Shown here: piece after piece, positions 44,566-58,761 of the stretch
Layout of the letters: each line of letters starts with the position of its first letter
Position numbering within the stretch: the first letter of the stretch is position 1
From: an uncultured Solirubrobacteraceae bacterium
GTDB taxonomy: Bacteria > Actinomycetota > Thermoleophilia > Solirubrobacterales > Solirubrobacteraceae
Length of the DNA: 64,000 nt
Direction of reading: 5' to 3'
NCBI GenBank assembly: GCA_963830725.1
Contig: CAWHNO010000016.1
Coordinates: 888,249-952,248, forward strand
Made by a program: the position numbers and the translations under genes
Notes under the pieces: generated by a model
Seen by the model: only the letters and a program-made list of their open reading frames with translations
Database searches by the model: none
Told to the model about the DNA's origin: nothing

Positions 44566-45939
44566 TCACAGCGCCTGGATCTCGGCCAGCACCTCGCCCA
44601 CCGAGGCCTTCGCGTCGCCGAACAGCAGCGCCGTCTTCTCGTCGTAGAAGAGCGGGTTGTCGATGCCCGCGAAGCCGCTGTTCATGGAGCGCTTGAGCAC
44701 GATCACCGAGCCCGCCTTGTCGACGTCGAGGATCGGCATCCCGTAGATCGGCGAGTCCGCCACCGTGCGCGCCGCCGGGTTCGTGACGTCGTTGGCCCCG
44801 ATCACCAGCGCCACGTCCGTGCGCGCGAACTCGGGGTTGATGTCGTCCATCTCCTTGAGCTGGTCGTACGGGACGTCGGCCTCGGCCAGCAGCACGTTCA
44901 TGTGCCCGGGCATCCGCCCCGCGACCGGGTGGATTCCGTACAGCACCTCGACGCCGCGCTTCTCCAGCTCGGCGGCCAGGTCGGCGACCGCGCGCTGGGC
45001 CTGGGCGACCGCCATCCCGTAGCCGGGCACCACGACCACCAGCCGCGCGTAGGAGAGCTGGATCGCCACGTCGGCCGCGCTGGTCGAGCGCACCGTGCCG
45101 CCGTCGCTCGCCGCCGCCGCGACCGCGCCGCCGGCCCCTAGCCCGCCGAAGAACACGTTGGCGATCGAGCGGTTCATCGCGTCGGCCATCTGCTTGGTCA
45201 GGATCGAGCCCGACGCGCCGACGAGCATGCCGGCCACGATCAGCGCCGTGTTGTCGAGCGCCAGGCCCGCCGCGGCGGCGCTCAGGCCGGTGAACGCGTT
45301 CAGGGTCGAGATCACCACCGGCATGTCGGCGCCGCCGATCGGCAGCACCGCCAGCACCCCGAGCGCCCCCGCCACCAGCAGGATCAGCCAGAACAGGGCC
45401 GACGACTCGGCGCCCGCCGCGATCACGACCGCGAGCGCGATCGCGGTGAGGGCGAGCACGCCGTTGACCGCCTTGGGGATCCGGAAGCCGCGCTTGAGCG
45501 TCTCCTGCAGCTTCAGGAACGCCACGTTCGAGCCCCAGAAGGAGATCGAGCCGATGATCGCCGCGAACAGCATCGGGATCAGCGTCTCCAGCGGTGGGTT
45601 GCCGCCCTCCTCGAGCGCCTCCAGGTACTCGACGATGCTGATCAGCGCCACCGCCCCGCCGCCGACGCCGTTGAACAGCGCCACCATCTGCGGCATCGCG
45701 GTCATCTTCACGTTGCGCGCCGCCGGGATGCCGACCGCCGTCCCGATCGCAAGGCCGACCACCAGCAGCGGCCAATCCCCGATCCGGTCGTCGAGCAGCG
45801 TCGCCCCCACCGCGATCGCCATGCCGGCCGCCGCCACCAGGTTGCCGCGGACCGCCGTGCGCGGCCCGCGCAGCATGTGCAGGCCGAGGATGAAGAGGCT
45901 GAAGGCGACGATGTAGAGGGCGGCGATCAGGTCATCCAT
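44566..45939 (-). CDS. pntB: NAD(P) transhydrogenase subunit beta
   Basis: 457 aa; MPQMVALFNGVGGG, VPGYGMAVAQAQ and HPVAGRMPGHMNVLLAEA. Confidence 0.95.
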   Translation of the reverse strand: MDDLIAALYIVAFSLFILGLHMLRGPRTAVRGNLVAAAGMAIAVGATLLDDRIGDWPLLVVGLAIGTAVGIPAARNVKMTAMPQMVALFNGVGGGAVALISIVEYLEALEEGGNPPLETLIPMLFAAIIGSISFWGSNVAFLKLQETLKRGFRIPKAVNGVLALTAIALAVVIAAGAESSALFWLILLVAGALGVLAVLPIGGADMPVVISTLNAFTGLSAAAAGLALDNTALIVAGMLVGASGSILTKQMADAMNRSIANVFFGGLGAGGAVAAAASDGGTVRSTSAADVAIQLSYARLVVVVPGYGMAVAQAQRAVADLAAELEKRGVEVLYGIHPVAGRMPGHMNVLLAEADVPYDQLKEMDDINPEFARTDVALVIGANDVTNPAARTVADSPIYGMPILDVDKAGSVIVLKRSMNSGFAGIDNPLFYDEKTALLFGDAKASVGEVLAEIQAL

Positions 45940-46219
45940 CGCGCTTCCTGCCCTTGAACATCCCGAGCATCCGGTCCGTCACCAGGAAGCCGCCGATCAC
46001 GTTGATCGTGCCGAACGCGATCGCGATCACCAGCAGCACGCTCTCCAGCACGCCGTCGGCGGGCCCGATCGTCAGCAGCGCGCCCAGCAGCACGATCCCG
46101 TGGATCGCGTTCGTCCCGCTCATCAACGGCGTGTGCAGCGTGTTCGGCACCTTCGAGATCACCTCGAAGCCGACGAACGCCGCCAGCACGAGGATCGCCA
46201 GCTCGGTCAGGAGGTCCAT
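45932..46219 (-). CDS. pntA: NAD(P) transhydrogenase subunit alpha part 2 (membrane)
   Basis: 95 aa; LAILVLAAFVGFEVISKVPNTLHTPLMSGTNAIHGIV. ATGA overlap with the upstream subunit. Confidence 0.88.
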   Translation of the reverse strand: MDLLTELAILVLAAFVGFEVISKVPNTLHTPLMSGTNAIHGIVLLGALLTIGPADGVLESVLLVIAIAFGTINVIGGFLVTDRMLGMFKGRKRDG

Positions 46220-47329
46220 CAGCCGGCCACCTTTCTCGCGCCCTCGTGCACGATCTCGCCGTCGCGCACGATGCAGGCGCCCTTGATCACCTCGTCGTCC
46301 CAGTCCAGCTCCAGCGCGCCGTCCTCGCCGGTCATCAGCTCGAGCAGCGACAGCACGTTGCGCGCGTACAGCTGCGACGCGTGCTCGGGCATCGAGCTCG
46401 GCAGGTTGAGCGGCGCGGCGATCGTCACCGCGTTGTCGGTCCGGTACGTCTCCCCCGGCCGCGCCAGCTCGCAGTTGCCGCCCGCCTCGCCGGCGAGGTC
46501 GACGATCACCGCGCCGTGCTTCATGCGCGCGACCGCCTGGGCGGTGATCAGCTTCGGCGCCGGGCGGCCGGGCACGAGCGCGGTGGTGATCACCGCGTCC
46601 GACTTGGCGATCTGGTCCTCGAGCGCCTGCCGCTGGGCCTGCTGCTCCTCTTCGGTCAGCTCGCGCGCGTAGCCGCCGGCCGCCTCGGCGTCGGCCGACC
46701 CCTCGACCTCGAGGAACCGCGCGCCGAGCGACTGGACCTGCTCCTTGACCGCGGCGCGCACGTCGAACGCCGTCACCACGGCGCCCAGCCGGCGCGCCGT
46801 GGCGATCGCCTGCAGCCCGGCCACGCCCGCGCCCAGGACCAGCACCTGAGCCGGCGGGATCGTGCCCGCGGCGGTCATCAGCATCGGCAGGAAGCGGCCC
46901 AGCTCCTGCGAGGCGATCAGCACCGCGCGGTAGCCGGCGACCGTCGCCTGGCTCGAGAGCGCGTCCATCGACTGCGCGCGCGAGATGCGCGGGATCGCCT
47001 CCATCGCGAACGCGGTCGCGCCGGTGGCGGCGACCGCGGCCACGCCCTCGCGGTCGGTGAGCGGCGCCATGAAGCCGATCAGCACGTGCTCGGCGGTCAG
47101 CCCGCCGGGCGGCGACGGGGCCACGCGCGCGATCACCTGCGCGCTCCACGGGTCGCCGATCTCGGCCCCGGCGGCGGTGAAGTCCTCGTCGAGCACGCCG
47201 GCCGCGGTGCCCGCGCCGGGCTCGATCACCACCTCATGGCCGGCTGTCGGTCATCCGGCGCACGACGTCAGGCACGAGCGCGACGCGCCGTTCGTCCGCG
47301 CCGGTCTCCTTTGGCACGCCGATCCTCAT
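46219..47329 (-). pseudogene. pntA: NAD(P) transhydrogenase subunit alpha part 1, with a frame shift near 47245
   Basis: AlaDH/PNT domains (VLVLGAGVAGLQAIATARRLGA). The true N-terminus MRIGVPKETGADERRVALVPDVV lies in another frame, 90 nt upstream of the track start. Confidence 0.9.
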
Positions 47330-47354
47330 CGGGGCCGGGAAGGTATCGAGTCCT

Positions 47355-48477
47355 CTACGGCAGCGCGGCGATCAGCGCGCCCGCGGCGGGCACGCGCGCA
47401 GCGGCCGCGAGGGCCGGCGTCTCGGCGGGGGCGGCCGTGGCCACCGGCGGCAGCGGCTGCGGCCTCGCCTTGCGCGGCGCGGGGCGCGCGGCCGGCGTCG
47501 GCGTGGCCGTCGGAGCGGGCGCGGACGCCGCCGCGGCGCTGCGCGCTCGCGGCACCGGCTTCAGGGGCAGCGTCTTGCGCGACAGCGCGGCGACCGCCTG
47601 GCCGGTGACCCACACCGGCGTCTGGCGGCTCGTGCGCGAGTAGCGGACCTCGCCGTCGGCGTCGGTCAGCGAGCGCAGGTAGCCCAGCGGGTCGCGCGAG
47701 CCGCCGCGGCGGACCTTGGCGGGGTCGCGTCCGGCGGCGAGCAGCCCCTGGACGGCCCAGGCGGTGGACTGCGCGTTCGAGCCGCCGCCCGGGATCAGCG
47801 CGAAGCCGCCGTCCGACGCCTGGTTGCGGACCACGAAGCGCGCGGCGCGCTCGACCGTGCGGCTGCCGCGGCGGCCGGCGGCCGCCAGCGCCTGGAGCGC
47901 GGCTCCGGTGTCGTCGATCCCCGACGGGCCGCCGCGGCCGGCGAAGTTGAAGCCGCCGTCGTCGTTGGCCTGGCCGGCGATCCACGAGGCGGCGCGGCGG
48001 ATCGCGCGGTCGTTCCGTGGCCGGCCGGCGGCGCGCAGCGCGAGCACGGCGAACGCGGTCGTGTTCACGCGACCGGCGAACGAGCCGTTCGGCCGCTGTC
48101 CGGACGCGCACCTCGCGCTCGAGGTCGCGGCCGCCGAGGCGCGGCTCGAGCCCGGCCGCCGCGAGCACGATGATCGTGCGCTGGATCTCGCCGAGGTCGT
48201 TCAGTTCGCTCGCATGCGCGCGCATGTAGGCGATCGCGCTCGGCGAGCCGACGTCGCGCGGATTGCGGCCGGCGGCGGCGAGCCCGATCGCCGTCCAGCC
48301 CGTGAAGAGCTGCGATGAGGACTGCCCGGGCGCGCCGCCCCAGCCGCCGTCGTCGTTCTGCGCCCCGGCCAGGTAGCGCACCGACTCGCGGACGGCCGCA
48401 TCGGCGGCGGGCGGCTGCGCCCCGGCGGCGACCAGCGCCAGCAGCAGGGCGGTCGCAGGCAGCGCCAGCCAGCGGAT
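47355..48477 (-). pseudogene. Secreted alpha/alpha-toroid protein with prenyltransferase/squalene-cyclase-type repeats; one frame shift near 48100; 5' end continuous with the S-component ORF
   Basis: Five repeats: AGAQNDDGGWGG, QRPNGSFAG, GQANDDGGFNF, RNQASDGGFAL and LTDADGEVRY. Signal-like WLALPATALLLALVAAGAQPPAADA. Pro/Ala-rich tail. Confidence 0.7.
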
Positions 48478-49071
48478 CTCGAACCGTGTCCGGTAGCGCG
48501 ACAGGGCGCGCACGAGGGCGGGCCCGAAGGCGAGGCAGAACACGACGCTGCCCGCCACGTGCGCGATGTCGAACGGCAGCGAGGTGGCGAACGTGGCCGC
48601 CAGCTTGGCGACCGTGTGGTCGCCGGAGTAGGTGACCCACAGGTGCAGGTTCATCACCGCCCCGAAGCCGGCCGAGGCGACCGCGCAGGCGGCGGCGAGC
48701 GAGACCCGGCCGAGCTCGCGCCCGGCGAGGCGCGCGAGCACCGCGCCGCCGACGCCGACGCCGCCCCACGCGACCATCTGCCACGGCGTCCACGGACCCT
48801 GGCCGAAGAACAGGTTCGACGCCAGGGCAGCCACGGCCCCGACCGCGAACCCCGGCGCGCCGCCGAGCACGTAGCCGGAGATGAGCACGATGTCGGTGGT
48901 CGGCTTGACGTTCGGCAGCGGCGCGAAGGCGATCCGGCCGAGCGCGGCGAGCGCGGCCAGCGTGGCCACGAGCGCGATCACCCGCGCGGTCGGGTGCGAG
49001 CGCTCGTACCAGGCGAAGCCCGCCAGCAGCGCGGCGCCGAGCAGCAGGAAGGAGGCGGCGACCCAGCTCAC
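48478..49071 (-). CDS. ECF-transporter substrate-specific (S) component-like membrane protein
   Basis: About 200 aa with 5-6 TM (VATLAALAALGRIAFAPLPNVKPTTDIVLISGYVLGG..., GPWTPWQMVAWGG...). GTG start in a GTGA overlap with ecfA. No stop before the next domain. Confidence 0.65.
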
Positions 49072-50636
49072 GTGCGTGCCTCCGGCGCGGTCACGACGTC
49101 CTCGGGCGCGGCCTCGTGGCGGAGCAGCGCCGCCCCTTCCTCGGGCAGCAGCGCGCCGCCGGCGCCGCCCAGCACGCGCGCGGTCTGGGTGGCGAAGTAC
49201 CAGCCGCCGCCCAGCACCTCGGCGGTGGCGGCGTCGGCGACCGGGCGCCCGTCGCCGAGCAGCACGGTCCGGCCGGCCCAGCGGGCGGCGAACTCGGCGT
49301 CGTGGGTGGCGACCAGGACCGCGATCCCGGCCTGCGCCAGCTCGCGCAGGCGGGCGGCGAGACGCGTGCCGTGCCCGCGGTCCATGCCGCGCGTCGGCTC
49401 GTCGAGGCAGACGGCGACCGGCGGCTCGCCGGTCGCCAGCACCAGCTCGAGCGCGAGGCGCTGGCGCTCGCCGCCGGACACGTCGCGCGGATGGCGGTCG
49501 GCGAGCGCGCCGGCTCCGGGCACGTCGTCGCCGATCCGGTCGTGAAGGAAGTAGTCGCCGGGGTTCTGCAGCAGCAGTGCCACCCGTCCCGCCCGGGTCA
49601 CGCGCCCGCGGGTCGGCTCGATCAGCCCGGCCAGCAGCCGCAGCAGCGTCGACTTGCCGGCGCCGTTGCGGCCCATCAGCGCGACGGTCTCGCCTGCCGC
49701 CAGCGCGAGGTCGACGCCGCGCACGATCGCCGGCCCGTCGGCGATCTCGTACCAGCCCCGTCGCAGCGCCACGACGGCCTCGCGCCGCGGAAGGGGGTCT
49801 GTCCCGATTTCGCCGGGCAGCGCTGGGAGCCGGGAGCCCAGCGCGCGCCGCGCCGCCTTGACGGTGGCAGGCCGTTCGGGGATGCCGACGAGCGCGCACA
49901 GGCGGGTCACCGGCGGCTGCAGCTCGGGCGGCGCCCAGGCCGCGAACGCCTCCGGCGTGCCGTCGAACGCCACGGCGCCGTCCTCGAGCGCAACGACGCG
50001 GTCGGCCGCCGGCAGGCAGCGCTCGAGCCGGTGCTCGGCGAGCAGAACGGCGGTGCCCCACTCCTCGTTGACGCGCCGCAGCACGCCGAGCAGCTCGTCG
50101 CCCGCCACCGGGTCGAGCTGCGAGGTCGGCTCGTCGAGCAGCAGCAGCCGCGGGCGGCCGGCGAGCGCGGCACCCAGCGCCACGCGCTGCAGCTCGCCGC
50201 CCGAGAGGTCGCGCGTCGAGCGGTCGAGCAGCGGCGCGATGCCGAGCGCGAGCGCCGCCTCCTCCACGCCGCGCGCCACCGCGGCCGCGCTCCAGCCGCG
50301 GTTCTCGAGCGGGAACGCGAGCTCGGACCGCACGCTTCCCATCACCACCTGCGTCTCCGGGTCCTGGACCAGCGTGCCCGCGACCGCGGCGAGCGCGGCC
50401 GGCCCGTGCTCGCGCGTGTCGAGCCCGCAGCACGCCAGGCGGCCGGCGAAGCTGCCGCCGTGGAAGTGCGGAACGAGCCCGGCGGCGGCGCGCAGCAGCG
50501 TCGACTTGCCGGACCCCGAGCCGCCGGCCACGACCACGAACTCGCCCGGCTCGACCGCCAGCGTCACATCGCGCAGCGACGGCGCGGCGGCGCCCGGATA
50601 CGCGTACGTGACGTGCTCGAGCGCGAGCGCTCTCAC
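49068..50636 (-). CDS. ecfA: Duplicated ECF/ABC ATPase (EcfA1-EcfA2 fusion)
   Basis: Two cassettes with Walker A (GGSGSGKST and GRNGAGKST), signature motifs (LSGGELQR and VSGGERQR) and Walker B (LLLLDEPT and VCLDEPT). 522 aa. Confidence 0.9.
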   Translation of the reverse strand: MRALALEHVTYAYPGAAAPSLRDVTLAVEPGEFVVVAGGSGSGKSTLLRAAAGLVPHFHGGSFAGRLACCGLDTREHGPAALAAVAGTLVQDPETQVVMGSVRSELAFPLENRGWSAAAVARGVEEAALALGIAPLLDRSTRDLSGGELQRVALGAALAGRPRLLLLDEPTSQLDPVAGDELLGVLRRVNEEWGTAVLLAEHRLERCLPAADRVVALEDGAVAFDGTPEAFAAWAPPELQPPVTRLCALVGIPERPATVKAARRALGSRLPALPGEIGTDPLPRREAVVALRRGWYEIADGPAIVRGVDLALAAGETVALMGRNGAGKSTLLRLLAGLIEPTRGRVTRAGRVALLLQNPGDYFLHDRIGDDVPGAGALADRHPRDVSGGERQRLALELVLATGEPPVAVCLDEPTRGMDRGHGTRLAARLRELAQAGIAVLVATHDAEFAARWAGRTVLLGDGRPVADAATAEVLGGGWYFATQTARVLGGAGGALLPEEGAALLRHEAAPEDVVTAPEART

Positions 50637-51487
50637 TCGATCCCCCGGCGGTCGGCGAACGGCGCCAGCGCGCACGCGGCGAGCGCGGCGGCCGCCGCGA
50701 GCAGCTGCCCGCCGAACGGCAGCACGACGCTCGGGTACGCCTCGAACCCCTCCCAGCCGCCGACGCCGGAGGCGATGGCCAGCGCGGCGACGGCGGCCGC
50801 CGAGGCGGCGAACGCCAGGTCGTGGCGGGAGAGCGGCCGGCGGCGCCGCTGCGGGCGACCGCCGGCGCCGAAGCCGCGCACCTCGAGCGTGGCCGCCACG
50901 TCGGTGGCGCGGTCGAGCGCACCGGCGGTGACGGCGCGCAGCACGTGCACGCGCATGGCCGCGGTCGGCGGGCCGCCGGTGAGCGCGCGCTGGGCGTCGG
51001 CGAGGCGCCGGCCGTCGCGCGCCAGCACCGGGATCAGGTGGGTGGCGAGCGCGGCCGTGACGCCGGCCCGCAGCGAGCCGCGGCGCAGCCCGCGCAGCAG
51101 CTCGTCGGCGTCGACCGTGGCGGCCAGCAGCGCGGCCGCCGCGATGATGACGATGGCCCGCAGGCCGAGCACAGCTCCGTAGGCAAGCGCCTCCGCCGTG
51201 ACGTCGAGCCGGCCGAGGCCGGGCACCGTCCCGCCGCGGAACAGCACGGTCAGGCCGTCGCGGACGACGATCGCGTTGACCGCCGCGATGACCACCGCGA
51301 ACGGCAGTGACCAGCGCAGGGTGCGTGCCGCGGCAGGCCACACGCCCGCCGCCGCGGCGGCGGCCAGCGTCGCCGCCAGCAGCGTGCCCAGCAGCAACGG
51401 GTGCTCGAACGACAGGGCGGCGGCGCCGAGCACGAGGCACCAGGTGGCGGCGATACCGGCGCGGGCGGCGTGCAGCGGGCTGGTCAC
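50633..51487 (-). CDS. ecfT: ECF transporter transmembrane (T) component, CbiQ family
   Basis: 284 aa multi-TM protein. The ARDGRRLADAQRA...TLEVRGF coupling-helix motifs are typical of EcfT/CbiQ. Confidence 0.85.
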   Translation of the reverse strand: MTSPLHAARAGIAATWCLVLGAAALSFEHPLLLGTLLAATLAAAAAAGVWPAAARTLRWSLPFAVVIAAVNAIVVRDGLTVLFRGGTVPGLGRLDVTAEALAYGAVLGLRAIVIIAAAALLAATVDADELLRGLRRGSLRAGVTAALATHLIPVLARDGRRLADAQRALTGGPPTAAMRVHVLRAVTAGALDRATDVAATLEVRGFGAGGRPQRRRRPLSRHDLAFAASAAAVAALAIASGVGGWEGFEAYPSVVLPFGGQLLAAAAALAACALAPFADRRGIE

Positions 51488-52402
51488 GGCTCCGCCACCG
51501 GCAGCGGCACGTCGGTGCCGGCCTCGACCGCCACCGCGAAGTGCTGCTCCAGCCGCTCCTCGGTCAGCGCGGCGGCCGCGGCGGCCACGCCGACCTGGTC
51601 GGTCCCGGTGACGATCCACGTCGGTCCCTGGCCTTCGAAGCCGGTCGCGGCGACGAGCCCGCCGCCGGCGCGCAGCGTCCGCGCGGGCCGGCCCTCGGCG
51701 TCGAGCAGCGCGATCGCATCGCCGCTGCTCGCCGGCTGGGCGAACACGCCGCTGGCGGCCGGCCCGCGCTCGAGCCGGCGCACGACGCTGTCGCCGCGCG
51801 CGGCCGACCACGGACCGACGATCACCCGCAGCACGCCCTCGCCCGGCGACTGGTGGATGACCGAGCGCGAGACGGCCGTCACGCCCGCGTCCTCGAGCCG
51901 CTCGGTGACCTCGTCGCACGAGCGCTCCGCGCCGCCCACGCACACGAGCTTGACCGGGAAGCGCTTGCCTTCGAGCCCGGTCACGAACGGCTCCGGGAAC
52001 GAGCCGACGACCGCGGGGATCCGCTGCGCCGCCTCCCACTGGTGGTGGTCCCACCAGACGCGCTCGCCGGCGGTGACGCGCCGCTCGGCCGCCCCGACCG
52101 ACGCCTCGATCCCGTTGACGTAGTAGAACCAGTCGGCCCGGCGGCCGTCCTCGCGGCCGCCGGCCAGGCCATCGATCTCCTGGACGAAGCCGCCGCCGTA
52201 GCGGGTCTGGACGTCGTAGGACTGCCTGCAGCAGGCGCATGACGGTGTCGCCGTCGGAGGCGGTCTGGGAGTCGACGCCCTCGTGCAGGGCCTCGGTGCC
52301 GAAGTCGCGCGTGACGGTCAGCGTGACGTCGCCGCGCGTGGCGCCCTCCCCGAAGCCGCAGCCGGCCAGGAGCAGGCAGGCGAGGAGGGCGAGCCGCTTC
52401 AT
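51484..52402 (-). pseudogene. Lipoprotein with a DUF4430 (transcobalamin-like C-terminal) domain, with one frame shift near 52222
   Basis: Lipobox MKRLALLACLLLAGCG. DUF4430 core RYGGGFVQEIDGLAGG...DWFYYVNGIEASVGAAERRVTAGERVWW. Confidence 0.65.
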
Positions 52403-53092
52403 CGCACGGTCACCTCGCGCGGGAAGGCGCGCACGAGACCGTCCTTGGAGGCCTCGAGCCAGCGGCCGTCGATCACCGTGAGAAGGGCGACCCCGTCGGC
52501 GCCGGAGACCGCGGTCGCCGAGCCGAGCGTCACGGTGGCGCCGGCGACCGCGACGCCCCGGCCCTGGTCGTCGTAGCCGCGCACGGTCACGCGCAGCGTC
52601 TCACCGGGCGCTGCGGCCGCGCGGTCCGGCTGCGCCTCGAGCGTGCGCTGGCAGCCGCCGGACGGCTCCTGCTCGCACCAGAACCACGTCACGCGCTCGC
52701 CCTGGCGCAGCCGGCGGCCGCCCGTGTCGGCGGCGCCCGTGCTGCCGGCGCGGCGGCCGACCTTGTAGACCCAGCCGCCGCGGCCCCTCTCGCGCTCGCC
52801 CGCGACCTTGCTCACGTACAGCCCGGCGGCGTCGCGCGGGCGCCGGCCGCAGCTGCCGTAGTCGCGGACGGCGAGCGGCAGGCGCGTGGCGACGAGCACG
52901 GACAGCGGCGTGCGCGCGCCGACGCGGCAGCGCCGGCCCGCCGACCTTGACGGTGCGCACCTTGAGCCGTACCTCGGCCGGCGCGCGCAGCACGCGCTCC
53001 TTGCCGACGACCATGACCTCGGCGGTGGCCGCGGCGGCCGGGGCCGGCGCGGCGACCAGGAGGGCCGCGGCGATCGTCGCCAGCCGCCTCAT
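52399..53092 (-). pseudogene. Secreted DUF4430-like + Ig-like domain protein, with one frame shift near 52935
   Basis: Signal peptide MRRLATIAAALLVAAPAPAAAA. Core GLYVSKVAG...GGWVYKVGRRAGSTGAAD...LRQGERVTWFWC, followed by ETLRVTVRGYDDQGRGVAVAGATVTLG. Confidence 0.5.
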
Positions 53093-54205
53093 CGGACGCG
53101 GAACGCCACCCGCCGCTCGCTCGCCGCTGTTGAACGCGTTGTCGACCGCGTAGACGTCGAGCACGTAGCGGCCGCGCGGCAGCCGCGCCGGCAGCAGGTA
53201 GCTCCAGCTCGGTCCGCTCGCCGACCTTGAACGCGTACTTCTTGCCGCACGTCGCGCTTGAGGAACCGCTCCTTGCTGCCGGAGAAGTACCAGCACGTGC
53301 CTCGGAGCCGGCGCGTGAGGCGGATCTTCACGGCCCACAGGCCGGACGGGTCGGCCGACACCGTGCCGCGCAGCTCGCGCGGCGCGCGGCGGCGGGTGAA
53401 GCGCTGGCCGTCGCGGATGCCGAGGATCGTGGCCGGTCGGAGCCGTGGTGTCGGGCGCTGACGGCGGGATGCGACGTCGCCGCACGGCGCCGTCGCGCGC
53501 CGTCGGTCACGCGGTCTGCCCGGTCGCGTGGCCGTGATGGCGATCGGCCGGGCTTCGGTGCGCGTCAACGTGCGCGTGGCCGTCGCCGGCGAGTGATCGC
53601 GCGACGCCGAGCCGGCGACGCACGGTCGGCGCCGGCCGCAGACGGTGCGCACGGCCGCACGGCGACGTTCGCGCCCGGCCGGTACTCGCGACGGTCACGG
53701 CTCGAGCGCGCTCACCGCGACGCGGCCGTCGAGCCGGCGACGCCCTCGCGGGCGACGCGGGAGGCGCAGCGGCAGCGTCGCACGGCCGGCGCCGCGAAGC
53801 AGTCGGACGAGCAGCAGCACATCGTCGCCGCTCGTTGAGCGTCGTCGTTGCAGACGCCGGTGCCGACTTGTAGCGCTGCCGCGAGTCGACCCACTCGGCC
53901 CAGTACCGGGCTCGCGAACGGGTCGTGCGTCTCGCCGACGGATCGGTCGCGGTGAAGGCCGCCCGGTCCCAATCGCGCGCCGGTCGCGCGGCTCGAGCGC
54001 GTCCGCCGCGGTGGTGCGCGTCGCATGCATGGCCGGGCCTGCCGTGACATCGGGACGCGCGACGTCGTGGTCACCGCCTCGAGCAAGGTCGCCGCGGTCC
54101 CTCCACCCGGACGGTCACGGTTGGCCGCGGCGAATGCAGGCGCCGCCGTCACCAGCAGCGACGAGCGACGAGGCCGGCGAGGCCGGCGGGAAATCGGAGC
54201 TTCAT
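53089..54205 (-). pseudogene. First gene of the riboswitch operon: secreted protein, heavily frameshifted
   Basis: Starts MKLRFPAGLAGLV 35 nt after the riboswitch. The readable islands are TAATLLEAVTTTS, LRGTVSADPSGLWAVKIRLTRRLRGTCWYFSGSKERFLKR and SWSYLLPARLPRGRYVLDVYAVDNAFN. At least 4 frame changes. Confidence 0.4.
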
Positions 54206-54239
54206 CGGTGGAGCCACCCCTTTCCGCGAGGGCGAATCG

Positions 54240-54415
54240 GCTTGCGGTCGGAGGGAGGTCTCCTGGCTCCCGGGCCTACCCTCCGCGCCTTCCCGGCTCG
54301 CGCTGCGAGACAGTGGCTGCGGCCTACGGCCGCGTGCGGACGGCTTCCCCGGTGACAGTGGCGGGTCCGCGCCGGATTCGCACCGGCTTCCCTGTCCACC
54401 GACCTGGTCGGGCCT
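54240..54415 (-). promoter_or_regulatory. Cobalamin (AdoCbl) riboswitch
   Basis: Minus strand reads GGTCGGTGGACAGGGAAGCCGGTGCGAATCCGGCGCGGACCCGCCACTGTCACCGGGGAAGC...GCAGCCACTGTC...CCGGGAAGGCGCGG...GGGAGCCAGGAGACCTCCCTCCGACC. This contains the conserved core and the B12 box. Confidence 0.88.
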
Positions 54416-54438
54416 CATGCTATACCCCGGACCGGCCC

Positions 54439-55002
54439 GTGACCGTCAACCTCACCCGCATCTACACCCGGCTCGGCGACGGCGGCGAGACCCACCTCGG
54501 CGACATGAGCCGCGTGCCGAAGACGCACGTGCGGATCGAGGCCTACGGCACCGTCGACGAGCTCAACGCGCAGCTCGGCGTGGCGCGCGCGATGGACGCT
54601 GCGCCCGAGCGCTTCGCCGGCTGGCTGGCGCGGATCCAGAACGACCTGTTCGACGTCGGGGCCGACATCTCCGTGCCCCACGGCGGCGACCGCGAGCGGC
54701 TGCGCCTGGTGCCGGAGCAGACGGCCTGGCTCGAGCAGGCGTGCGACGAGGTCAACGGCGAGCTGCCGAACCTGAAGTCGTTCGTGCTGCCCGGCGGGAC
54801 CGCGGTGGCGGCGCAGCTGCACGTCTGCCGGACCGTCTGCCGGCGGGCCGAGCGGCGGACGATCGCGTGCGGCGACGACGTCAACGCCGAGTGCGTGCGC
54901 TACCTCAACCGCCTCTCCGACCTGCTGTTCATCCTCTCGCGCGCCGCCAACGTGGCGGCAGGCGCCGGCGAGCCGCTGTGGGAACCGGGCCGCTACCGGT
55001 GA
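54439..55002 (+). CDS. pduO: PduO-type ATP:cob(I)alamin adenosyltransferase
   Basis: TRIYTRLGDGGETHLGD...VDELNAQLG...IQNDLFDVGADI...LPGGT...HVCRTVCRRAER. 187 aa from the GTG at 54439. Confidence 0.9.
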   Translation: MTVNLTRIYTRLGDGGETHLGDMSRVPKTHVRIEAYGTVDELNAQLGVARAMDAAPERFAGWLARIQNDLFDVGADISVPHGGDRERLRLVPEQTAWLEQACDEVNGELPNLKSFVLPGGTAVAAQLHVCRTVCRRAERRTIACGDDVNAECVRYLNRLSDLLFILSRAANVAAGAGEPLWEPGRYR

Positions 55003-55598
55003 CGAGCGCGGGGTTGTTCCCGGCCGAGCACCGCGCGCTGCGCGAGCTGCACGCGATGGTTCGCCAGCTCTGCGGGCATTGGGCGAGGCTGGCCGCGCGA
55101 CTCGGCGGCGAGCCGGGCGCTGTGCTCGGGCGCGGAGCCGCCGACGCGCAGGAGCTGCTCGCCGAGATCAACGAGCGCGCCGCGGCCCACGGCGTGCACG
55201 GGTTCCCGGCGGCGGAGGGGGTCGGCGGCGGGCTGGCGGGCGCGCACGGGATCGGCGACCTGATGCTCGAGCGCAACCAGGCCCTGCGCAGCGCGGTGCA
55301 CGACATCCAGCACGTGACGATGCTGCTCGGCTACCTTGCCGAGCTGGCGAAGCTGCGCGACGACACGTCGTCCACGGGCTGGCTCGGCGGCTGGGAGGCG
55401 CGCCTGCGGGCGGTCGAGGCCGAGGCGCGCGAGGCCGCGGTGGCCGAGGGCCGCCACCCGGAGCGGGCGATCGAGCCGGCCGGCCCGGGCAAGCTCGGCC
55501 GCGCCGGCCACGCCGTGGCCAACGGGCTCGGCACGCTCGGCGAGGCGGTCGACACCTCGGTCGTGGGACGGGCCGCGCGCAAGCTGCGACGCGACTAG
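54999..55598 (+). CDS. Hypothetical helical protein (199 aa) translationally coupled to pduO
   Basis: GTG in a GTGA overlap with the pduO stop. The composition is coding-like (LFPAEHRALRELHAMVRQLCGHWARLAARLG...). No motif recognised. Confidence 0.55.
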   Translation: MTSAGLFPAEHRALRELHAMVRQLCGHWARLAARLGGEPGAVLGRGAADAQELLAEINERAAAHGVHGFPAAEGVGGGLAGAHGIGDLMLERNQALRSAVHDIQHVTMLLGYLAELAKLRDDTSSTGWLGGWEARLRAVEAEAREAAVAEGRHPERAIEPAGPGKLGRAGHAVANGLGTLGEAVDTSVVGRAARKLRRD

Positions 55599-56906: not shown

Positions 56907-56979
56907 TACCGCTACGGGGATTCGAACCCCGGTTTCCGCCGTGAGAGGGCGGCGTCCTAGTCCCCTAGACGATAGCGGC
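56907..56979 (-). tRNA. tRNA-Glu (anticodon CUC)
   Basis: GCCGCTATCGTCTAGGGGACTAGGACGCCGCCCTCTCACGGCGGAAACCGGGGTTCGAATCCCCGTAGCGGTA folds as a cloverleaf with anticodon loop CTCTCAC and T-loop GGTTCGAATCC. No CCA is encoded. Confidence 0.9.
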
Positions 56980-57882: not shown

Positions 57883-57966
57883 GCGGCTGTGGCGGAATTG
57901 GCAGACGCGATAGCTTCAGGTGCTATTGGGCAAACGCCCGTGGGGGTTCGAGTCCCTCCAGCCGCA
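57883..57966 (+). tRNA. tRNA-Leu (anticodon CAG)
   Basis: GCGGCTGTGGCGGAATTGGCAGACGCGATAGCTTCAGGTGCTATTGGGCAAACGCCCGTGGGGGTTCGAGTCCCTCCAGCCGCA has a long variable arm and anticodon loop TTCAGGT. Confidence 0.92.
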
Positions 57967-58571: not shown

Positions 58572-58735
58572 GGAGTTCTCGCTGATAGAACGACGCCCGC
58601 CGAATCGCCGGCCCTCCGCGGGACGGCGAACGGGGGAACCGATGCGGCCGCACGGCCGCGGGGGCGAATCGCCGCGATCCTGCGCGGCGTAGCGAGCGAT
58701 CGCGAGCCCGTCAGCTCACCTCGTAGGCGACTCGG
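58572..58735 (+). promoter_or_regulatory. Cyclic-di-AMP riboswitch (ydaO/kimA class)
   Basis: CTCGCTGATAG...ACGGGGGAACCGA...CGGGGGCGAATCGCC...GAGCCCGTCAGCTCACCTCGTAGGCGA parallels the conserved blocks CGCUnAAUC / GGGGGACCCA / GGGGUGAAUC / CCCGACAGCUAACCUCGUAAGCG. Confidence 0.8.
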
Positions 58736-58761
58736 ACAGATGTGATGAGGACTGACGGATC

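Follow-up and report, generated by a model that had tools for sequence, protein, structure and literature searches.

What do the genes behind the cobalamin riboswitch of this locus encode, and could they form an importer that captures B12 outside the cell? ECF transporters are usually described as lacking extracytoplasmic binding proteins. An earlier note, made from the letters of the sequence, had nevertheless proposed an extracytoplasmic capture apparatus of split alpha and beta modules feeding an ECF transporter. We therefore analysed the locus within the window, the whole stretch of 64,000 nucleotides from an uncultured Solirubrobacteraceae bacterium.

Riboswitch and gene organization

The riboswitch claimed in the earlier note was recovered by cmscan, which matched model positions 1-189 of 189 of RF00174, i.e. 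the full length, with a score above the gathering score of 31.5 bits (Table 1). The B12-box GCCACUG was seen in the alignment. The proposed start codon, the ATG at 54205, was retained and is preceded by an SD sequence; its distance from the 3′ end of the riboswitch is 30 nt and not 35 nt. A search of 46900-55100 gave no intrinsic terminator-like site, and folding of the leader gave a z of -0.16. From its sequence, the leader is presumed to act as a translational expression platform.

Behind the riboswitch lie six co-directional genes (G1 to G6), with starts at 54205, 53092, 52402, 51487, 50636 and 49071. At each of the five junctions, stop and start codons overlap by 4 nt (ATGA/GTGA), in agreement with the overlap-coupled gene string described before.

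Table 1. Coordinates of the riboswitch, the operon and the neighbouring gene in the window.
Feature	Coordinates	Strand	Evidence and remarks
Cobalamin riboswitch aptamer (RF00174)	54236..54432	-	cmscan 71.4 bits, E 1.3e-15
Leader, aptamer to start codon	54206..54235	-	SD-like GGAAAGGGG, 8-16 nt before ATG
G1, secreted protein	53089..54205	-	signal peptide; heavily frameshifted in window
G2, secreted protein	52399..53092	-	signal peptide; extra base ~52943
G3, lipoprotein	51484..52402	-	lipobox LAGC, canonical DUF4430; extra base ~52224
G4, EcfT (T component)	50633..51487	-	PF02361 CbiQ 5.6e-14; intact
G5, fused EcfA-EcfA′ ATPase	49068..50636	-	PF00005 (ABC_tran) 7.5e-41, two stretches; intact
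G6, N-terminal CbrT-type S-component domain	48472..49071	-	DUF6580 5e-9, ECF_trnsprt 6.5e-5
G6, linker, predicted extra transmembrane helix LALPATALLLALVAAGA	48409..48471	-	hydrophobicity scan of orthologs; AF2 helix
G6, single alpha/alpha toroid, ~290 aa	47556..48408	-	SQHop_cyclase_C 3e-11, Prenyltrans 6e-6; extra base ~48108
G6, tail, Pro/Ala-rich spacer and C-terminal hydrophobic anchor	47355..47555	-	translation
PduO-type ATP:cob(I)alamin adenosyltransferase	54439..55002	+	TIGR00636 185.3 bits, cutoff 108.45

Interrupted reading frames

None of the secreted-protein genes (G1, G2 and G3) is intact within the window. G2, G3 and G6 each contain a single extra base at the approximate positions given in Table 1; that of G2 was located by comparison with the sister contig L081 and with L002, and that in the toroid of G6 by comparison with L081. 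G1 shows many paired indels. The frames of G4 and G5 are intact, and pntA, which lies outside the operon, is likewise frameshifted. L081 is 95.8% identical, with 145 gaps, mostly of 1 nt, and carries its own, different frameshifts, as does L001. At the G3 site L081 is intact, and the extra bases that the window has in G2 and G6 are absent from it; these two genes are broken elsewhere in L081, where G5 and pntB are additionally affected.

The sister contig and the orthologs either have unbroken frames at these positions or are interrupted at other ones, so the broken frames are most likely long-read assembly errors. Because four or more genes are broken in a 7-kb stretch, and G1 is garbled in both assemblies of the species, real frameshifts in a decaying pseudogene cluster were also considered. 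However, this is quite unlikely given the differing breaks in L081, the shift in pntA and the intact G4 and G5. Moreover, GC3 is 0.94-1.0 on either side of each shift in G2, G3 and G6. The frame of G1 is lost and regained repeatedly, and the conserved islands PTVTVRVEG, DWDRAAFT, YWAEWVD, LNE and GDDVLLLV switch between frames, a pattern that argues for consensus noise and not for decay. G1 is intact in L001 and L002, and it may have decayed in this species.

An ECF transporter with a fused S-component and toroid

The EcfT and the duplicated EcfA named in the earlier note were both found, as G4 and as the two ABC_tran domains of G5. G4 also matched TIGR02454 (2e-7), under the cutoff of that model. 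CbiQ, its family in Table 1, is used by Pfam for EcfT proteins in general.

The S-component and the repeat protein had been described as two proteins, but they form a single fused ORF, G6. Helix 1 of its N-terminal domain bears an AxxxA motif (ATLAA). The sole PDB match of this domain was 6fnp_A (CbrT), with E 1.9e-11 as a single sequence and 2.9e-20 as a profile. The match spans residues 9-179 of 182, and the matching 6fnp_A stretch itself belongs to ECF_trnsprt. Neither CbiM nor NikM was matched in this PDB search. CbrT of Lactobacillus delbrueckii is an experimentally proven B12/cobinamide S-component (PMC5997447). By sequence comparison, the N-terminal domain of G6 is a homologue of CbrT over its full length.

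The extra helix in the linker, seen as a hydrophobic segment in the scan of orthologs and as a helix in the AF2 model, is predicted to lead the chain to the outer side of the membrane. For the part that follows, the proposed alpha/alpha-toroid fold was borne out by the Prenyltrans and SQHop_cyclase_C matches, the latter exceeding the gathering score. In the AF2 model of P0002, a protein 83% identical to G6, the toroid has a pLDDT of 93-98 and the tail a low one; hydrophobic C-terminal segments are also found in L002 and L013. Of the five xxDGG[WF] repeats counted before, three are exact in the DGG[WF] core and two are degenerate (NGSF and DGEV).

DUF4430-type domains in the secreted proteins

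Signal peptides and the lipobox are readable in the sequences of the secreted proteins. The description of G3 as a lipoprotein with a DUF4430 core held: PF14478 was matched by the window fragment (1.2e-10) and by the L002 ortholog (1.3e-13), and an intact 305-aa G3 protein (P0121) is 98% identical. The ~180-aa C-terminal domain of G3 gave no significant match in sequence and fold searches, and the DUF4430 part failed in the AF2 model.

In G2 the N-terminal domain (GGWVYKV...GERVTWFWC) weakly resembles DUF4430, and the C-terminal domain is Ig-like. The DUF4430-like core noted earlier had no Pfam DUF4430 match in the window sequence; it is weakly assigned because PF14478 is matched by 5/15 orthologs (best 7e-6) and G2 aligns with the G3 profile (hhalign E 5.7e-4). 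CarboxypepD_reg is matched by 7/15 orthologs. G1, previously described simply as secreted, holds more than that: an N-terminal DUF4430/SLBB-like domain, with PF14478 matched by 8 of 14 orthologs (best 6.7e-8), an Ig-like domain (CarboxypepD_reg/Big) and a conserved C-terminal domain. Altogether, all three secreted proteins are predicted to carry DUF4430-type domains, clearly in G3 and weakly in G1 and G2.

Likeness to transcobalamin

The earlier note had likened the operon to the two folds of transcobalamin. For the beta module this link is real, since the C-terminal domain of human transcobalamin matches the same DUF4430 Pfam family, which represents the B12-contacting domain of transcobalamin (PMC1796856); the direct alignment of the G3 profile with the transcobalamin beta domain was not significant (hhalign E 0.097).

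For the alpha module the likeness rests on the general fold class. The toroid of G6 did not match PF01122 (Cobalamin_bind), and chains of transcobalamin, intrinsic factor and haptocorrin were all absent from its PDB profile search at E<=10. Alignment with the alpha domain of human transcobalamin gave a hhalign E of 0.19, and the best 50 Foldseek matches were terpene cyclases and prenyltransferases, led by squalene-hopene cyclase-like proteins and prenyltransferase beta subunits. Membership of the toroid in the eukaryotic cobalamin-binding family was thus not detectable; by its sequence and modelled fold it is of the squalene-cyclase/prenyltransferase type. Transcobalamin combines alpha and beta domains, whereas here the toroid is fused to the S-component and the DUF4430 domains reside on separate proteins. 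Thus, of the proposed split-module apparatus, the importer, the DUF4430 proteins and the toroid stand, and a free-standing alpha module does not.

Conservation and related systems

Among 80 Thermoleophilia loci, 75-80 contain the core of G3, EcfT, EcfAA′ and the fusion (G3 in 75), and the riboswitch lies 5′ of the operon in 72/72 related loci, counting those with enough upstream DNA. G1 was found in 54/80 loci and G2 in only 17/80; in Conexibacter arvalis G2 is fused to G1. The G6-type fusion occurs in more than 570 genome loci, including that of the isolate Conexibacter arvalis DSM 23288, and in 7725 database proteins (636 clusters at 50% identity; E<=1e-30).

The pduO gene diverges from the riboswitch and is associated with the operon from outside. 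A homologue lies close to the operon in 43/80 loci, and the L081 ortholog matches the Pfam family Cob_adeno_trans. In L. delbrueckii, cbrT adjoins pduO (PMC5997447).

The B12-scavenging design is not new: Burroughs et al. predicted in 2007 that bacterial SLBB and toroid proteins in CbiO/CbiQ operons are B12 scavengers (PMC1796856), and the fused S-component-toroid form is a variant of it. The earlier note knew of no experimentally characterized bacterial example; the homologous operon lsa1836-1840 of Lactobacillus sakei has the same parts list, namely an S-component, fused EcfAA′, EcfT and beta-like and alpha-like proteins, and was studied experimentally for heme uptake, not B12 (10.1101/864751).

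Proposed function and alternative explanations

Sequence, homology and gene context together suggest that the operon probably encodes an importer of the ECF-CbrT type that is dedicated (group-I-like) to cobalamin or related corrinoids, repressed by the riboswitch at sufficient B12 and equipped with putative extracytoplasmic capture modules. At low B12, the leader would permit ribosomes to initiate at 54205, and translation of the coupled genes would follow. The G3 lipoprotein, with G1 and G2 where present, would expose DUF4430 beta-grasp domains on the outside of the membrane, and the seventh helix of G6 would place the toroid outside, directly over the CbrT pocket. The S-domain would pass the corrinoid inward, driven via G4 by ATP hydrolysis in G5, and the neighbouring PduO would adenosylate it. 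Three points count against this main reading: how an S-component could topple with a bulky domain on its outer side has no mechanical explanation, ECF transporters are usually described as needing no extracytoplasmic binding protein, and the L. sakei system was linked to heme.

It is unlikely that, in a B12 importer, the DUF4430 proteins and the toroid serve another envelope role instead of ligand capture, for instance in fixing the transporter to the wall or setting its position there, in shielding it or in cell-cell interaction. This would make the transcobalamin analogy superficial, and several observations fit: the toroid is nearest to cyclase/prenyltransferase toroids and not to transcobalamin, a distant homologue of the fusion bears SLH wall-anchoring domains, G1 and G2 contain Ig-like domains, which are typical of surface proteins, and many loci are without G1 and G2. 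However, essentially every locus retains the G3 DUF4430 domain and the fused toroid behind the riboswitch, DUF4430 is the family of the B12-contacting domain, and a toroid joined to the substrate-binding subunit speaks for a substrate-handling role. A substrate other than cobalamin, either another tetrapyrrole such as heme or cobalt ions, is very unlikely given that CbrT is the only solved S-component matched by the S-domain, with CbiM and NikM absent, that riboswitch control is universal in the clade and that PduO is close by. Heme is suggested by the L. sakei operon with the same parts, and cobalt by the CbiQ match of the T component, although this family is generic, and by B12 riboswitches, which control cobalt importers too (e.g. 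CbiMNQO).

Finally, we regard it as highly improbable that the toroid is a class II terpene-cyclase-like, protonation-dependent enzyme acting outside the membrane, with a corrinoid or a lipid of the envelope as examples of its substrate. The domain is a single ~290-aa toroid and not a beta-gamma didomain, and it is predicted to be extracytoplasmic within a transporter operon. Besides the SQHop_cyclase_C match above the gathering score, the idea draws on an invariant Asp in a DxDDT-like motif, which aligned with the catalytic DVDDT of drimenyl diphosphate synthase (7xq4/7xr7) and is a full DxDDT in 28/62 orthologs. Many orthologs have the motif in degenerate form, though (GIDDT in the window; NADVT and TADGT elsewhere), and in sequence D/T-capped inner helices occur in every repeat of the toroid fold.

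Riboswitch and operon layout

The Rfam covariance model RF00174 matched the minus strand over its full length (model positions 1-189 of 189) with a score of 71.4 bits against a gathering score of 31.5 and an E-value of 1.3e-15, confirming the cobalamin riboswitch that the earlier note had read by eye. That note had placed it 35 nt before the ATG at 54205, but this distance did not hold: the ATG, which starts G1 and is preceded by GGAAAGGGG, lies 30 nt past the end of the aptamer. From there, an operon of six minus-strand genes (G1 to G6) extends down to 47355, each gene starting at the upper coordinate given in the table. At every junction between G1 and G6 the start codon overlaps the preceding stop by 4 nt (ATGA or GTGA). 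Such overlaps are the usual mark of translational coupling, and the genes are coupled throughout the operon. A search of the region around the operon (46900-55100) for terminators and promoter-like sites came back empty, and the MFE fold of the leader was no better than that of shuffled sequences. B12 control is presumed to work at the level of translation. The window has a G+C content of 74.6%, and the genomes closest to it belong to Solirubrobacteraceae and to other groups of Thermoleophilia.

Table. Features of the operon and its surroundings (window positions).
Feature	Position	Strand	Remarks
pntA/pntB, proton-translocating NAD(P) transhydrogenase	44566-47330	-	directly downstream of the operon
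G6, fusion	47355-49071	-	S-domain, linker helix, toroid, Pro/Ala-rich spacer, C-terminal hydrophobic anchor
G5, fused EcfA-EcfA'	49068-50636	-	522 aa; PF00005 on two stretches
G4, EcfT	50633-51487	-	PF02361 (CbiQ), E 5.6e-14, 52.7 bits (cutoff 25)
G3	51484-52402	-	LAGC lipoprotein; canonical DUF4430 and ~180-aa C-terminal domain
G2	52399-53092	-	signal peptide, weak DUF4430-like domain, Ig-like domain
G1	53089-54205	-	signal peptide, DUF4430-like domain, Ig-like domain, conserved C-terminal domain
Cobalamin riboswitch, RF00174	54236-54432	-	Rfam covariance model
PduO-type adenosyltransferase	54439-55002	+	185 bits; divergent from the riboswitch
tRNA gene	56907-56979	-	
tRNA gene	57883-57966	+	
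c-di-AMP riboswitch (ydaO/yuaA-type)	58588-58744	+	49 bits

The ECF module and its fused S-component

G4, G5 and the N-terminal part of G6 make up a complete ECF module. The families expected for the first two were both recovered, CbiQ above its cutoff in G4 and two ATPase cassettes in G5. In contrast to the separate S-component and repeat protein that had been proposed, both are encoded by one ORF of 570 aa, G6; as a part of this fusion, the S-component is not small. An extra hydrophobic helix is present between the S-domain and the alpha/alpha toroid.

The window fragment of the S-domain scored 37 bits with DUF6580 (cutoff 27) and 23.5 bits with ECF_trnsprt, which is below the cutoff of 30.7. 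When the S-domain profile was searched against the PDB, the only match at E<=10 was 6fnp_A (E 2.9e-20), aligned over profile positions 29-200 and chain residues 9-179 of 182, a stretch that is itself recognised as an ECF S-component. This chain is CbrT, the S-component of the ECF-CbrT B12 transporter of L. delbrueckii (PMC5997447). In addition, the AxxxA motif in helix 1, which characterises S-components (PMC11109136), is retained, ATLAA of G6 aligning with ALLTA of CbrT.

Two relatives of G6 differ in architecture. In P0378 (835 aa) the match to S-domain and toroid starts at residue 523, and the N-terminal extension of ~520 aa might stem from fusion to the upstream EcfAA' or from artefactual read-through. 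The distant homologue at L082 277-2376 (GCA_018434225.1; 699 aa, 38% identity) carries C-terminal SLH cell-wall-anchoring domains in place of the hydrophobic anchor.

The toroid domain

The AF2 model of P0002, a relative of G6 with 83% identity, showed a single toroid of ~290 aa after the membrane domain, with a pLDDT of 93-98. The best Foldseek matches were squalene-hopene cyclase-like proteins, drimenyl diphosphate synthase, MstE and prenyltransferase beta subunits. Transcobalamin, intrinsic factor and haptocorrin were absent from the top 50 matches listed, so that the fold search against such carriers suggested earlier was negative within this list, and a weaker match may lie below it. The expected cyclase/prenyltransferase repeats were found throughout: all 19 diverse toroids matched SQHop_cyclase_C (best E 1.3e-15; member 1 with 52.8 bits, the cutoff being 26.1), and all 19 also matched SQHop_cyclase_N, Prenyltrans and TED_complement.

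A specific relation to transcobalamin was looked for by three further routes, each with a negative outcome. None of the 19 toroid sequences matched PF01122 (Cobalamin_bind) at E<=10, the toroid profile found no transcobalamin, intrinsic factor or haptocorrin chain in the PDB at E<=10, and hhalign of the toroid with the alpha domain of human transcobalamin (TCN2; reference sequence checked against 7qbf/2bb5) gave an E-value of 0.19. These results indicate that the alpha module resembles that of transcobalamin in its general toroid fold only.

The secreted DUF4430 proteins

Secretion signals are present in G1 and G2 and a lipidation signal in G3. With PF14478 (DUF4430; cutoff 23.8 bits), the window fragment of G3 scored 42.1 bits (E 1.2e-10) and its ortholog from the related locus L002 51.6 bits (E 1.3e-13). 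G1 and G2 reach this family only via some of their orthologs, 8 of 14 for G1 (best 6.7e-8) and 5 of 15 for G2. Alignment of G2 with the G3 profile by hhalign gave an E-value of 5.7e-4, pairing GGWVYKV...RVTW with DWFYYVNG...ERVWW. Names for G1-G3 were not found in NCBIfam.

Human TCN2 also matches PF14478 (24.9 bits), as well as PF01122. The homology of the beta modules, as proposed from the sequence, thus holds as far as the Pfam family goes, G3 and TCN2 both being members; hhalign of the G3 profile with the transcobalamin beta domain was not significant (E 0.097).

Searching G3 against PDB sequences returned one chance match only. An AF2 model of G3, built from its intact relative P0121 (98% identical, 305 aa) and 36 homologues, had a mean pLDDT of 52, with the DUF4430 part below 50, and retrieved nothing by Foldseek at E<=0.001. 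The C-terminal half of G3 (51484-52020, ~180 aa) is kept in every G3 ortholog and was modelled with a pLDDT of ~75-90. Neither Pfam nor the PDB sequences yielded a match for it, and Foldseek gave nothing significant, flavodoxin and BcsB being among the weak hits.

Conservation of the arrangement

We scanned species-representative genomes for the fusion and found it encoded at more than 570 loci, of which the best 80 were used for counts. These have 45-82% identity, and one belongs to the cultured isolate Conexibacter arvalis DSM 23288. By tblastn, G3-G4-G5-G6 were present in 75-80 of the 80 loci, while G1 was seen in 54 and G2 in 17; in 43 a homologue of PduO was close by. As G2 is missing from most loci, the accessory set is modular. 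In C. arvalis (L013 4767-6347), a single ORF of 526 aa combines G1 and G2 and has two DUF4430-like domains.

The linkage of operon and riboswitch is strict. Rfam found the riboswitch upstream and on the operon strand in all six loci tested. A second covariance model, made from the Rfam riboswitch hits of related loci, found it in the same position in 72 of 72 loci with enough upstream DNA, and in L081, a sister contig of the window; the eight loci without a match all end too early upstream. The survey that the earlier note had called for bore out the core of its gene set. The locus is real and well conserved, and very probably serves B12 uptake. Among 8000 candidates scored, 7725 relatives of the fusion were found at E<=1e-5, and a search with E<=1e-30 gave 636 clusters at 50% identity. 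In public annotation the fusion goes under ECF substrate-specific component or prenyltransferase-repeat protein.

Frame damage in the window

Four of the six genes change frame internally, as seen when GC3 was plotted by frame and all three frames were translated. The breaks were placed by comparing the window with L081 (95.8% identical; own gene calls, ENA) and with the intact orthologs of L002. Single extra bases were located at 52943 in G2, 52224 in G3 and 48108 in G6, each of them a C in the minus-strand sense, and in G1 conserved peptide islands repeatedly drop out of the start-codon frame and rejoin it. Between the window and L081 there were 145 gaps (122 of 1 base; 102 inside 53460-54170), or overall ~1 indel per 125 bp.

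These frameshifts could reflect real pseudogenisation. However, the related contigs L081 and L001 are broken at other places than the window, namely in G5, G6 and pntB, and in G2, G3 and G6 GC3 stays near 1.0 both before and after each shift. Together with the frame re-entry of G1 and a further shift in pntA, outside the operon at ~47250, this argues for noise in a long-read consensus and not for gene decay, which we consider the less likely explanation. Both assemblies of the species have a garbled G1, so that this one gene may truly be decaying. The window has the look of a long-read assembly without polishing, and its sequence needs polishing before any of its genes is used.

A 420-aa "G1" called in L081 proved to be a wrong-frame ORF and is no evidence of an intact G1 in the species. 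The N-terminal domain of G1 is 49% identical between L001 and L002, compared to 78-91% for the rest of the operon, and this fast-diverging stretch (53460-54170) is where the window and L081 barely align. Either a hypervariable surface module or poor assembly of the region could account for this.

Comparison with known systems

The closest proven transporter is ECF-CbrT of L. delbrueckii (6FNP, PMC5997447), a B12 ECF transporter with a plain group II S-component. CbrT is the sole solved S-component matched and the S-domain is homologous to it over the full length; both systems have EcfT and two ATPase cassettes, and a pduO adenosyltransferase gene adjoins in both. By this comparison, B12 or cobinamide would be the expected substrate of the operon. 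The ECF module here is a dedicated one, encoded in the same operon and with EcfA and EcfA' fused, whereas L. delbrueckii shares its group II module. Moreover, the S-component here is extended by an additional helix at its N-terminus, a linker helix (the seventh), a toroid predicted to be extracytoplasmic and an anchor at its C-terminus, and the operon adds DUF4430 proteins and a cobalamin riboswitch.

Bacterial SLBB proteins resembling the transcobalamin C-terminus were described by Burroughs et al. (2007, PMC1796856) as often toroid-fused, occurring as paralogues in one operon together with CbiO/CbiQ genes, and were proposed to scavenge B12 or its precursors. The operon resembles these systems in its secreted or lipid-anchored beta-grasp paralogues, its toroid and its ECF-type ATPase and T genes. 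There, the fusions are between SLBB and toroid and are found mainly in Firmicutes and archaea (PMC1796856), whereas here, in Thermoleophilia of the Actinomycetota, the toroid sits on a membrane S-component and a riboswitch is documented ahead of the genes.

The earlier note knew of no experimentally characterised bacterial example, but lsa1836-1840 of L. sakei is a studied relative, which according to the available text of Verplaetse et al. (10.1101/864751) has been linked experimentally to heme uptake. Compared by described gene content, it shares with our operon an S-component, a fused EcfAA', EcfT and beta-like and alpha-like modules, and its authors propose that alpha and beta jointly scavenge the ligand that the ECF transporter takes up. 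Both modules of L. sakei are secreted, alpha as a protein of its own, and heme is the substrate proposed. In our operon the toroid forms one chain with the S-component, the DUF4430 proteins number up to three, and a B12 riboswitch is present, an element of which the available text of 10.1101/864751 makes no mention. With this operon and the prediction in PMC1796856, the central idea of the earlier note had already been published. In the literature searched (DUF4430, transcobalamin-like and ECF plus prenyltransferase topics) no paper on an S-component-toroid fusion was found, and the DUF4430 lipoprotein with its extra domain and the universal B12-riboswitch control of the arrangement in Thermoleophilia were likewise found undescribed there.

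Transcobalamin, intrinsic factor and haptocorrin share with the operon a beta domain in PF14478 and an alpha/alpha toroid as its partner. These eukaryotic carriers are single soluble chains with a PF01122 alpha domain, whereas here there are two polypeptides and the toroid is tethered to the membrane on a transporter subunit.

Proposed function

We consider it very probable that the locus encodes a B12-regulated corrinoid ECF importer. In the proposed mechanism, the linker helix would place the toroid outside the membrane, where the DUF4430 domains and the toroid may catch corrinoids and pass them to the CbrT-type S-domain; import would be powered by ATP hydrolysis and PduO would adenosylate the imported product. 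Whether the accessory modules capture substrate at all is a closer call, and we put it at slightly below even. ECF transporters are importers that normally need no soluble binding protein. The definition of the class as working without an extracytoplasmic substrate-binding protein would not describe this operon, with its lipoprotein, two secreted DUF4430-type proteins and a toroid predicted to lie outside, all putative binders. Further, and more tentatively, the CbrT-fused toroid and the DUF4430 lipoprotein might form a two-chain transcobalamin-like clamp that holds the corrinoid directly above the pocket of the S-component; we regard this as possible and rather doubtful. If true, the clamp would give an ECF transporter the kind of extracytoplasmic substrate-capture device that its class is defined as lacking, and would be a living example of the prokaryotic precursor, still in two parts, from which the B12 carriers of eukaryotes came.

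Besides pseudogenisation, three other explanations were considered. The toroid could be a catalyst, as its best sequence and fold matches are class II terpene cyclases and prenyltransferase beta subunits, with which it shares QxxDGG[WF] repeats. In the class II cyclase SsDMS, the catalytic DVDDT is the counterpart of its GIDDT (~47790-47810) in the alignment; the central Asp, aligned with the DxDD acid, is near-invariant, and the full DxDDT is present in 28 of 62 orthologs, while others have GIDDT, NADVT or TADGT. Unlike these enzymes, which form a beta-gamma didomain or pair with an alpha subunit, the toroid is single, predicted to be extracytoplasmic and degenerate in its DxDD, and its operon is a transporter operon without isoprenoid context; a gene for a partner subunit is not found in the operon. 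The substrate could be heme or cobalt, heme being the one proposed for the L. sakei relative, whereas here a cobalamin riboswitch precedes the operon and the S-domain is of the CbrT type. The accessory modules could also serve a non-capture envelope role. Biochemical proof of B12 binding by a bacterial DUF4430 protein or toroid, predicted since 2007, was not found in the literature searched; the covalent fusion to a CbrT-type S-component is a "Rosetta-stone" link that ties the toroid physically to B12 transport.

For a corrinoid importer with capture modules, the fusion loci offer a defined and clean test bed for this old prediction, one member being in the cultured C. arvalis DSM 23288. Corrinoid capture by the modules, the way in which a toppling S-component copes with an outside domain and the bacterial origin of animal B12 carriers all become testable. 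The locus also points to a route of B12 acquisition in the abundant soil Thermoleophilia.

Neighbouring genes

The synteny of pntA/pntB with the operon is kept in L001, L002 and L013. On the other side, the PduO gene is followed by an ORF of ~199 aa (region 54439-55598, plus strand), which is also called in L081 and has no Pfam match. The c-di-AMP riboswitch and both tRNA genes occur in identical order in L001.
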